From assembly GCA_963832835.1 (NCBI GenBank), contig CAWHVD010000001.1:1899429-1963428 (forward strand): DNA of 64,000 bases, given 5' to 3'. Below are positions 56,369 to 60,883 of the stretch, one piece after another; position 1 is the stretch's first letter, and each line of letters starts with the position of its first letter. Under the pieces are notes generated by a model. It did no database searches and was not told the DNA's origin. It saw nothing but the letters and a program-made list of their open reading frames with translations. Both the position numbers and the translations under genes were made by a program. This stretch comes from an uncultured Chlamydiales bacterium (GTDB lineage: Bacteria > Chlamydiota > Chlamydiia > Chlamydiales > JAAKFR01).

Positions 56369-59300
56369 ATGATTCGGATCTTATACGCACGTTACGAAGC
56401 TTCCCTATATCAATCCAACTGTCAAGTATTTGCTCGGTTAACAACCTCTGGCGGCAAGACCTTTGAGATCACAAAAGTTGTTTTTGGGGTACTGGATGAA
56501 CTGTCACCTTCTCGCCTCATTGATTGCTGCGCTCAGGAAACACTTAAAAATAACATCGCTATTTTCCCCTATCCTAGCCTAGAGCAACATGATGAGGTTT
56601 GGGTCTTTGAGGCGACCCCAGCTGCTGCTCATCATCTATGGGAAGCAAAGAAGATTCATTGCAAAGAAAGCTCTGCAGAACACAACCAAAAAATCCTCAC
56701 TTACTTAAAAACCGCTTTAAAAATCCAAGGTGGCAATCCAGAACTAGAAAAAGCCATTCTAGCTACCAAGCAAAAGCTAATTCTTCAAGCTGAGATCTAT
56801 GCAACAACCTATCTTTGTGAAACAGAAAAAGTGCTATTTTTAAAGATGAAAGAAGGCATGCCTGCCTTTGAGCAGCTTTTAGAGTGGATACATGTTTGGA
56901 AGGGTGAAAAACAACCCCATGTCTATCTGATGCGAGCGGTAGTTTATGAGTTTCTTTTGGACCAGCCCCTCCTAGCTGCTGGCAGCTATGCCAGCCTTGC
57001 GCAAGTGAGTGAGGATGCAATAGCTCTAGCATGCATGAAACAGGCCTGTTCATTTTTTACAAAAACAGACCCAGTCCTTAACTACGCCCATTTTTTGGAA
57101 AAAATTGACAGAAAATTTTTGGCCAAATTTGTAGAAAAGTACCCGGAATTCGACCACATCCTTCTTCAAAAAGATGCCATCCGGATGACCTTTGAAAGAG
57201 CTCTAGTACTTTTTGAAGATCCGTTACTTAACACTAAATGTTTTATCTGCTGCAGCCCTCAAGACGAGGAAGTAGTCTCGTGGGTGCACCATGCCTTGGC
57301 ATTTGATCTTGCCAAAATCGGAGTAAGCCCGATCTATGCTGCGCAAGATCTTTCTCATATCGGCGATTACAAAAGTTTTCAGGCAAAGATCAGCTCAGCT
57401 AACAAAGTGATTGTCATTTGCACGCCTGAGCTTAAAGCGAAATGCATGTCTGACCATCCAATGGGAATAGCCGAAGAGATCCGTCTTGTGAGAGAGAGAT
57501 ACGGTAAGCCAGAACTAGCTGGTGGCATTTCACTTCTATACCTGCAGGGGAACCGCCAAACTTCTTGCCCAAGCCCCTTTCTGGAACCCATTTTTGCAGG
57601 TCAGCATGCAACTGCAGACCAACCCATAGAAAAAACAATCTTTAATTATTACGATAGGGCCTTTGAGTTTTTTGCTCCCCTGACAGGGTTATCTAACCTA
57701 AAAGCCTTAGAGATAAAAGAGTGTTTTATAGATGCCATCCAAGACGTTCTCACAGGTAAGATTATCGAGAGCGACGTAAATACATGGAGAAAATGTAGAT
57801 GGGAAAAAGCAGAGCTTGGTAGTCTTCAGGACCTCCAAAAGATCTACAGCAGACTCGAAAGCACCCAGCCCCATCTACTGATTCAACAGGATCTCCGTGA
57901 CCATTACGCCTCGAAAAAGCATCTTACTCTTCTGGTTTCCCAAAAACAAATTCCTATTAAGCAGCTCTACACCCGTCTAGCGATCATCGGTGAAGCAGAG
58001 AAAAAAGAGACACAGAGTGAAATAAAAGAAACAAAACCGGGCCAATCTCTAGAGCTCGAAGACCGAAGACCGTTGACACACGAATCCATCTTTGAGCCAA
58101 AAAAAGCCATTCTCCTTGAGGAACTATTTAAGCATGATCAGTTAAAAGGAGCTACAAAACGGATCTTGATCCAAGGATCAGCAGGGATTGGTAAAAGCAC
58201 CTTGTGTCATCATATAGCCTACCGGTGGGCCCAAAAAACACTCTTTACAGAATTTGAGTATCTGCTTTGGCTTCCTCTGCGCTGTCTTGATAAAAATAAC
58301 GTGCGTTTGATGCAAAACCTTACCTGGAATGACTATGTTGCTCAAGAGTGTGGGCTTGAAAGCCCACACGTCCATACTCTTTTTAGCGATCCAGCAATTC
58401 AGAAAAAGACCCTTGTTTTACTAGATGGTTATGACGAATTGTCGGGAGATGCGACAAATAATCAGGGTTGTTTCTATCCTGTTTTGCAAGCACTACAAGC
58501 TTTTCCGAACGTGATCATCACCTCCAGGCCTAGAGAGATAAGGGACTTCAAAGACAAAAAAACTGTGATCTTAGAGATTTTAGGTTTTGATTCGAAAGGC
58601 ATTGAAGAGTATATCGAGCATTTTTTCTCGAAGGATCAGCAGGTACAGGCACAGAACTTACGTACTCAGCTTCAACAACCCCTCGTTAAAAGCCTGGCAC
58701 ATATCCCCATTAATTTAGAGATTTTTTGCTCACTTGTTGCCGCTAACGAACCTCTTTTTAATGCATCGGAATCTCCCACTCTGATAGGAATCTACATCAA
58801 GCTCACCGATTGGCTATTTAAACGGTTTAGAATCGAACGCAATAAAAAAGACCCGGATGAGGTCATAAGTGAGCCTGATGCCGATTCTGCATTTGATGTC
58901 GGTCATTTGACTCAAGTGATGGAGCAAATCGCATGGAAGGCGATGGATCTAAACACTCTCTATCCCCCTCTTACGAACATCACAAAAATCTGCAGATCCG
59001 TAGAGAAAGCACAGAAGGTTGCAATTGGTATTGGTATAGAATCTATCCGAAGTATAGGTCCCTTGCGCATTGAGGATAACCAGGGCGTTTTTATCCACCT
59101 AACCTTTCAAGAGTATTTTGCAGCGGCCCATCTTGCTCGCCTTTACCAAAATAATCAACAGGAAGCCGGAAAACTTTTAGCAAAGATCAAATTCGAGCCT
59201 CGCTATAGACTCGTGCTCTGGATGACAGCTGGAAGCCTCTCCCAAAATGGAAAGCTCAACGATTTACAGGCCTTTTTTAAGGATCTTTACTCAGAACCTC

Positions 59301-60883: not shown

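Follow-up and report, generated by a model that had tools for sequence, protein, structure and literature searches.

A chlamydial NACHT protein with a SEFIR/TIR-type domain and a HEAT-repeat array, laid out like an NLR immune receptor

Results

Architecture of the gene product

The stretch of DNA analysed here (hereafter designated the window; 64,000 nucleotides (nt), positions 1,899,429 to 1,963,428 of the forward strand of contig CAWHVD010000001.1, GenBank assembly GCA_963832835.1) derives from an uncultured Chlamydiales bacterium and carries, near its end, one uninterrupted reading frame with an ATG start that encodes a protein of 1504 residues (Table 1). As judged from its sequence, this protein is laid out like the NLR (nucleotide-binding, leucine-rich repeat (LRR)) immune receptors of animals and plants, with a SEFIR/TIR-type effector (residues 289–485), a NACHT switch (598–755) and a HEAT-repeat sensor (1071–1457), all preceded by an additional N-terminal domain (hereafter, N-domain). 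It belongs to the NACHT clade of the STAND (signal transduction ATPases with numerous domains) NTPases and, through its effector, to the STIR (SEFIR/TIR) fold superfamily. The open reading frame (ORF) and every motif quoted in a first-pass annotation, which a model had made from the letters of the window, were found in place, with the frame intact.

Table 1 Features of the NACHT gene and of its immediate surroundings (window coordinates)
Feature	Position	Strand	Residues, description and basis
Whole gene	56369..60883	+	N-domain / SEFIR-TIR / NACHT / HEAT, 1504 residues, stop codon included; single ORF and domain matches
N-terminal domain	56369..57220	+	Residues 1–284; β-rich cap (1–81), then about 10 TPR/MIT-like helices (84–281)
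STIR-superfamily (SEFIR/TIR-like) core	57233..57598	+	Residues 289–410; profile, Pfam census, AlphaFold2, Foldseek, PADLOC bSEFIR
E370 codon, candidate catalytic Glu	57476..57478	+	Start of αC, motif G-[IV]-A-x-E-I-R-L
Three-helix C-terminal extension of SEFIR-like domain	57638..57823	+	Residues 424–485; YY..AFE.F and W.R motifs conserved
NACHT NTPase	58160..58633	+	Residues 598–755; Pfam NACHT, Walker motifs
Presumptive NACHT-associated helical/winged-helix region and linker to repeats	58634..59578	+	Residues 756–1070; alignments to NLRP3 and chlamydial NACHT relatives
HEAT array, presumptive sensor	59579..60739	+	Residues 1071–1457, nine 39-residue units
Divergent neighbour, 460 residues, weak phosphoribosyltransferase (conflict-system PRTase) signal	54336..55718	-	PRTase-CE, PADLOC
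IS630-type transposase, split into helix-turn-helix (HTH) ORF and DDE_3 ORF	61337..62388	-	DDE_3 1.9e-21; HTH_29, HTH_33, HTH_32

The SEFIR/TIR-type domain

The first-pass annotation had described residues 289–395 as TIR-like, a segment that includes CFICCSPQDEE (residues 291–301, nt 57239–57271) and ANKVIVICTPEL (residues 344–355). The protein's own sequence scores below the Pfam gathering cut-off of 28 bits for TIR_2 (PF13676), both as the whole protein (E = 0.033, 15.1 bits) and as the isolated segment (E = 0.0019, 19.1 bits), and the PADLOC model bSEFIR matched the same residues at 1.8e-5, a partial match over 79 of 412 positions. Against PDB sequences, a profile of 4 sequences retrieved the TIR domain of Hydra TRR-2 (6.5e-5) and a bacterial SEFIR (0.006). 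With a profile from a 54-sequence alignment of the SEFIR-like domain (hereafter A5), the members of which were relatives gathered in the exhaustive search of representatives described below, the SEFIR domain of Bacillus cereus (BcSEFIR; 5y8e/5y8f) was matched at E = 7e-20 along almost the full chain, and TIR domains (TRR-2, TLR15, PdTIR, AbTIR and SARM1) at 2e-5 to 1e-2, the best at 2.3e-5. When the A5 members were scanned singly, 43 of the 54 matched TIR_2 at E ≤ 0.01 (best, 3.7e-21) and 17 matched the SEFIR model (best, 1.9e-17).

Structure prediction gave the same picture. AlphaFold2 (AF2), supplied with the A5 alignment, modelled residues 285–485 with a mean predicted local distance difference test score (pLDDT) of 89.5 and a predicted template modelling score of 0.84. 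The top Foldseek matches of this model in the PDB were all TIR or SEFIR structures at a probability of 0.99–1.00, namely SPARTA TIR-APAZ, the IL-17RA/RB/ACT1 assembly, Hydra TRR-2, IL-17RA, TLR15 and BcSEFIR, with target-normalised template modelling scores of 0.55–0.67 for the single-domain targets TRR-2, TLR15 and BcSEFIR. The core comprises βA (289–294), αA (300–316), βB (319–322), αB (334–343), βC (346–351), αC (367–378) and βD (387–391), and the helices of the C-terminal extension occupy positions 140–155, 159–177 and 183–200 of the segment model, with Y427, Y428, F432, W473 and R474 as conserved columns. Because the sequence profile, the Pfam census of the family, the confident model and the fold search all agree, the segment is taken, by sequence and predicted fold, as a true STIR-superfamily domain. 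Thus, the TIR label holds for the fold, but by profile comparison the nearer relative is bacterial SEFIR rather than canonical TIR.

The conserved Glu of TIR-type NADases, located in helix αC, has a counterpart here, as judged by alignment, in E370. This position is Glu in 97 of 103 family segments (94%) and is nearly invariant in A5 and in a further alignment, A6. In the profile alignment it falls on the Glu of the BcSEFIR motif 'GVGTE', and in an hhalign comparison (probability 87%) on that of the SARM1 motif 'VHKEI', presumably the catalytic E642; the latter match, made with a manually entered SARM1 sequence, is a strong lead, short of a database result.

The NACHT module and its relatives

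The NACHT call of the first-pass annotation was borne out by Pfam, where the module scored far above the gathering cut-off (E = 2.1e-22, 80.2 bits against 26.7). Walker A is GSAGIGKST (residues 603–611, nt 58175–58201, including K609), Walker B is LVLLDGYDEL (682–691, nt 58412–58441, including D686 and E690), and IITSRP follows at residues 716–721 (nt 58514–58531). The Walker B sequence DGYDE conforms to the D[GAS]hDE signature that tells NACHT modules apart from other STANDs (Kibby et al., 10.1101/2022.07.19.500537). G608 and K609 are nearly invariant across the family. NACHT homologues align across residues 575–1010, the best solved relative being NLRP3 (1.8e-13); within the presumptive helical/winged-helix region that follows the NTPase, Pfam returned a weak match to NLRC4_HD2 (residues 910–942, E = 0.018).

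Among the nearest NACHT sequences, that from Neochlamydia sp. EPS4 is likewise a NACHT-HEAT protein and is 38% identical over the full query, and an Ank-NACHT protein from a metagenome-assembled genome (MAG) of the Parachlamydiaceae is 56% identical over half of it. Beyond the Chlamydiae, relatives were found in Candidatus Jidaibacter acanthamoeba (31% identity), in Rickettsia felis and R. bellii (27–28%), in a few proteobacterial MAGs, in Mortierella-type fungi (NACHT-HEAT proteins) and in the bdelloid rotifers Adineta and Rotaria (about 30%; P0161, P0167, P0178, P0190 and P0251), where the N-termini carry an NAD:arginine ADP-ribosyltransferase or a TIR_2 domain. The rotifer relatives hint, at the level of sequence similarity, at transfer between bacteria and eukaryotes within this NACHT lineage. 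Kibby et al. (10.1101/2022.07.19.500537), whose classification has 25 NACHT clades, reported that the clade of animal NLRs also holds Rickettsiales proteins, proposed acquisition from intracellular bacteria, and described a similar mix of eukaryotes and intracellular bacteria in their clade 12; the supplements of that preprint contain no chlamydial entries.

The HEAT-repeat array

About nine HEAT repeats had been noted at the C-terminus, and exactly nine 39-residue units were resolved, two of them with internal partial duplications. In Pfam, HEAT_2 (E = 1.7e-29, 102 bits against a cut-off of 27.7) and HEAT_EZ (6e-14, 53 bits) both scored above their cut-offs, and Tandem Repeats Finder described the array as a 117-nt period with 83–87% matches. 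The scaffold positions are almost invariant (TLPPxAL..LVEMAG ... EALGKIAAS.Q); the differences between units cluster in about 12 of the 39 positions, at unit positions of about 15–28, which cover the loop between the helices and the beginning of the second one. At the DNA level, identity between neighbouring units reaches 93–95%, and most of the differences between them change the encoded residue. With the divergent last unit excluded, pairwise codon comparisons gave 163 non-synonymous and 52 synonymous differences, a crude count made from non-independent comparisons. This variation is, at the sequence level, as expected of recently duplicated and diversifying repeats of an NLR-type receptor, and falls short of proof.

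On the minus strand, ORFs of 296, 153 and 134 residues (59536–60626) cross the array with repetitive translations. These frames (59536–60426 and the others) were rejected as genes and taken as by-products of the tandem repeat.

The N-terminal domain

The first-pass annotation had left the first 285 residues or so without an assignment, and our searches of PDB sequences, of structures and of Pfam likewise assigned none. Neither the single sequence nor two profiles matched any PDB sequence. AF2 gave a pLDDT of about 85–90 across residues 1–281 in a run that used 4 sequences, in which the SEFIR part remained at pLDDT < 50; the fold search with this model says nothing on the SEFIR part because of that low confidence. 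For the N-domain, Foldseek against the PDB and BFVD returned nothing significant, the best matches being 14-3-3, TPR or Sel1-like structures at E ≥ 0.09. A Pfam scan of 15 N-domain members gave weak MIT and TPR matches, in 6 and 4 of the 15, respectively, and no catalytic signature was recognisable in the domain. The domain is kept across the family, where it occurs both with and without the SEFIR domain. It is, on the predicted model, a genuine, conserved and confidently folded domain without a known relative, and may be read as a protein-interaction or regulatory domain. The unassigned domain is, however, no orphan, since it recurs with SEFIR as a module.

Distribution and shuffling of the module

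An exhaustive profile search with the module formed by the N-domain and SEFIR (residues 1–485) retrieved at least 275 cluster representatives at E ≤ 1e-3, 65 of them at E ≤ 1e-30. Rarity judged by a word-indexed search would have been misleading, because the latter retrieved only 3 proteins with residues 1–584 and 1 protein with the 4-sequence SEFIR profile. Local domain mapping showed the N-domain with SEFIR, either domain alone, and duplicated copies. Among 38 long members, NB-ARC was found in 12, NACHT in 10, TPR arrays in 17 and HEAT arrays in 5. It follows that the module has been combined by shuffling with different STAND backbones and different sensors. Short members consisting of the N-domain and SEFIR only also occur (P0014, P0015, P0021 and P0023; 514–560 residues), as does a 524-residue one with no other Pfam domain at 13989–15563 of locus L001.

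The family forms local arrays. Locus L001 holds four tandem paralogues of the module within 16 kb together with one Ank-patatin-STAND-TPR gene, locus L003 holds three adjacent NB-ARC STAND genes, and in locus L004 the module again lies beside an Ank-patatin-STAND-TPR gene. The latter genes (L001, 1431–5735; L004, 996–5318) encode proteins of about 1440 residues and adjoin genes for the N-domain with SEFIR; their presence in two loci suggests that NLR-like genes differing in effector type are conserved as neighbours. All named carriers of the module are Chlamydiae, and both matches in species-representative genomes were chlamydial MAGs. A metagenome scan added one locus, a genome scan for the N-domain module gave no match, and no relative was found on viral contigs. 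On the same 2,585,090-bp contig, outside the window, lies a 735-residue paralogue (P0001) that is 69% identical; because its sequence breaks off just past Walker B, continuing into an unrelated tail, it is taken as truncated and is probably a disrupted copy.

Genomic context

The IS630-type element directly downstream of the gene marks a variable region, and beyond its split transposase lies rpoC. The GC content is 0.39–0.43 at 50001–60000, against 0.44–0.49 in most other 2-kb bins (24–26 kb and 36–40 kb are also low), and four ORFs in or near this interval (48428–49138, 50052–50507, 51151–51735 and 53854–54294) matched nothing in Pfam or PADLOC. Positions 50001–60000 have the look of an accessory region, with the V-ATPase operon on one side and rpoC on the other. 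The divergent neighbour matched Pfam PRTase-CE at 3.5e-4, below the cut-off, and PADLOC PRTase_III-A at 2e-6. As a partner of the NACHT protein it is unsupported, being absent beside the homologues in loci L001–L003, and its part in a common system is doubtful. PADLOC, applied to 10 proteins of the window, recognised no known defence system near the gene, returning only weak PRTase_III-A and repeat-type matches.

Elsewhere the window bears chlamydial hallmarks, in keeping with the chlamydial nearest relatives of the gene product: a doubled UvrA of 1874 residues (11131–16755, +), PknD (21152–24010, +; 948 bits against a curated cut-off of 839), four tandem OppA-type paralogues, one of 912 residues with an N-terminal extension (62–8341, +), and a V-type ATPase operon (41260–48300, -). 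A second insertion sequence, encoding a DDE_Tnp_1 transposase, lies further upstream (35255–37075, -). Two large paralogues with about 50% mutual identity (16873–20796, +; 23995–28764, -) each have a PARP-type ADP-ribosyltransferase domain at the N-terminus, a nucleotidyltransferase module (DUF294) and an extended TPR array; ankyrin repeats are present in the second as well. Together with the NACHT protein, whose NAD+ use is predicted, the window therefore holds three proteins of the plan 'NAD+-using domain, nucleotide-binding module, repeat array'.

Discussion

Comparison with known systems

In its presumed working logic the protein resembles receptors of the bNACHT and Avs type, yet it stands outside every curated defence family. 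Those bNACHT proteins that have a TIR or sirtuin effector at the N-terminus and a HEAT, TPR or LRR sensor at the C-terminus are anti-phage and require the Walker A lysine (10.1101/2022.07.19.500537). Like these, the chlamydial protein has NACHT at its centre, with a Walker A motif and a Walker B of the D[GAS]hDE type, a tripartite layout, an effector from a class that targets NAD+ (TIR being among those listed), and HEAT-type repeats at the C-terminus for a sensor (Kibby et al., 10.1101/2022.07.19.500537). However, no tested bNACHT member is close, and the present protein, from an obligate intracellular chlamydia, places a SEFIR-like effector behind an extra domain of 285 residues.

Bacterial SEFIR (bSEFIR) is an anti-phage system made up of one protein, the SEFIR domain of which depletes NAD+ (10.1101/2022.05.11.491447; 10.1101/2024.02.11.579819). 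The profile match to BcSEFIR, stronger than that to any TIR, and the alignment of its 'GVGTE' Glu with E370 link our protein to this system. bSEFIR proteins differ in being of about 400 residues, with an N-terminal SEFIR domain and without a STAND NTPase, whereas here the SEFIR domain is internal, is extended by three helices and is joined to NACHT-HEAT. With the TIR NADases (SARM1, AbTIR, SPARTA TIR-APAZ and Thoeris ThsB) the protein shares the fold (Foldseek probability 1.0) and the Glu at the SARM1 E642 position, and activation by induced proximity would be the common logic, although sequence similarity is marginal (E of 1e-5 to 1e-2 with the 54-sequence profile).

Compared with the animal NLRs (NLRP3, NLRC4 and NOD2), of which NLRP3 is the closest solved NACHT, HEAT repeats stand for LRRs and SEFIR/TIR for PYD/CARD. 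The NACHT-HEAT proteins of fungi and rotifers are about 27–31% identical and have swapped N-terminal effectors (TIR_2, ADP-ribosyltransferase or caspase-like). Avs/AVAST proteins share the logic of effector, STAND and repeat sensor, and some variants have NAD+-depleting effectors; they differ in that no PADLOC Avs model matched and that our protein has a NACHT-clade NTPase. Membership in Avs, EruA or another curated defence family was rejected on scores. Literature searches returned no published description of the family, or of NACHT, SEFIR, TIR or NB-ARC proteins in Chlamydiae, and turned up no homologue with a different documented function. The architecture class is thus already known; the module of N-domain and SEFIR, its chlamydial expansion, and the N-domain itself are new.

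Proposed mechanism

We hold, with about even confidence, that the gene encodes a bacterial NLR-like STAND receptor-effector acting as a conflict or immunity switch inside the chlamydial cell. From the architecture we infer the following course. The HEAT array, with its near-identical scaffold and variable loop and helix-B positions, would bind a trigger, which may be a phage protein, a protein from another kind of mobile element, or some sign that the state of the cell is perturbed. Binding would free the NACHT NTPase (K609, DGYDE) to exchange or bind nucleotide and to oligomerise, and oligomerisation would gather the SEFIR/TIR domains, so that a composite site around E370 may cleave NAD+, leading to growth arrest or death of the affected cell. 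NAD+ cleavage is proposed because bacterial SEFIR and TIR defence effectors act in this way. For the N-domain, the likeliest role is to regulate the SEFIR domain or to dock it, given that both are found together, as a single module, on NTPase backbones of different kinds. By their sequences, the tandem arrays, the swapped NTPase and sensor modules and the hypervariable repeats show the pattern of receptor repertoires. The defence role that the first-pass annotation cited for bacterial proteins of this kind is consistent with the architecture, which fits the bNACHT and SEFIR precedents; an anti-phage role in particular would be read from that architecture, with no defence system recognised nearby.

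Several observations weigh against a receptor-type switch. No curated defence family of PADLOC or NCBIfam was matched, and EruA (NCBIfam NF058535) was rejected at 25.4 bits against a cut-off of 1000. The selection rule for bSEFIR places the SEFIR domain at the protein N-terminus (Millman et al., 10.1101/2022.05.11.491447), a rule that fails here, as the domain starts at residue 289. To these are added the protein's own score under the TIR_2 cut-off, the partial PADLOC bSEFIR match, the crudeness of the codon count and the lack of a known defence system among the window proteins scanned. Phages of environmental chlamydiae are poorly known, which leaves the trigger obscure. Finally, the NACHT clade is common to eukaryotes and other intracellular bacteria, a distribution equally compatible with a host-directed role.

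Alternative readings

Such a host-directed role is the strongest of the alternatives, though we consider it unlikely. The protein, or a fragment of it, would be exported by type III secretion into an amoebal or other eukaryotic host, where SEFIR/TIR may deplete host NAD+ or disturb host TIR, SEFIR or NLR signalling, NACHT-HEAT serving as a eukaryote-like scaffold. After the Chlamydiae, the nearest NACHTs indeed belong to amoeba- or arthropod-associated Rickettsiales, bdelloid rotifers and Mortierella-type fungi, and NLRP3 is the best solved relative; the window holds many eukaryote-like repeat proteins (PARP, ankyrin and TPR domains), no defence island was recognised among the window proteins scanned, and several pathogens possess TIR proteins with effects on host cells. 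The layout of sensor, switch and effector, the hypervariable repeats and the tandem arrays nevertheless fit a receptor repertoire rather than a single-purpose effector, and an ATP-dependent oligomerising switch of 1504 residues would be an unusual secretion substrate.

Improbable as well, in our estimate, is that the SEFIR-like domain is a non-enzymatic homotypic adaptor, which after NACHT oligomerisation would recruit proteins consisting of the N-domain and SEFIR, or others, the real effector being elsewhere. The model for this is the IL-17 receptor, which recruits Act1 via SEFIR-SEFIR contacts, and Foldseek aligns 181–194 columns of the domain with the IL-17RA/RB/ACT1 SEFIR assemblies. Short members suited to such recruitment exist, but many of them are encoded on metagenomic contigs of small length and could be incomplete. 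Defence by bSEFIR was lost on mutating a residue predicted for SEFIR-SEFIR contacts (10.1101/2022.05.11.491447), yet bacterial SEFIR is reported to deplete NAD+ itself (10.1101/2024.02.11.579819), and conservation of the Glu at the TIR catalytic position in 94% of relatives would be unexpected for a pure adaptor. Very improbable is a further alternative, in which the gene was acquired horizontally, lies in a variable region and is now a relic, decaying or without function: the same-genome paralogue is truncated after Walker B, IS630 lies directly downstream and the local GC content of 0.39–0.43 is under that of most of the window, but the 4.5-kb frame is uninterrupted, with all catalytic motifs intact and the family-conserved residues kept.

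Implications

Immunity in bacteria and immunity in eukaryotes have a central link in NLR-like STAND receptors whose effectors cleave NAD+. To our knowledge, obligate intracellular chlamydiae are not usually thought to carry repertoires of such receptors. Our analysis suggests that they have an expanded modular family, in which the N-domain and SEFIR are joined to a backbone of either the NACHT or the NB-ARC type and to HEAT or TPR repeats as sensors. The present locus gives a SEFIR-type, not a classical TIR, effector on a NACHT backbone, and exposes ahead of it a domain without known relatives that is predicted to be well folded.

The closeness of the NACHT module to those of Rickettsiales, rotifers and fungi bears on the proposed origin of eukaryotic NLRs in intracellular bacteria. 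A more far-reaching reading, which we regard as speculative and a long shot, joins these threads: a NACHT lineage exchanged between Chlamydiae/Rickettsiales and rotifers, early-diverging fungi and possibly the animal NLR stem, with the chlamydial proteins as present-day relatives of the bacterial sources from which eukaryotes drew NLR and SEFIR immune modules, or else as 'counterfeit NLRs' that sense or subvert host factors in the host cytosol, the N-domain being a new lineage-specific regulatory or effector fold. The finding would be of greater interest if the NACHT module proved to be sister to the animal NLRs or if the protein acted in the host. Knowledge of the sensed ligand would tell whether environmental chlamydiae fight phages, competitors or hosts with NLR-like machinery.

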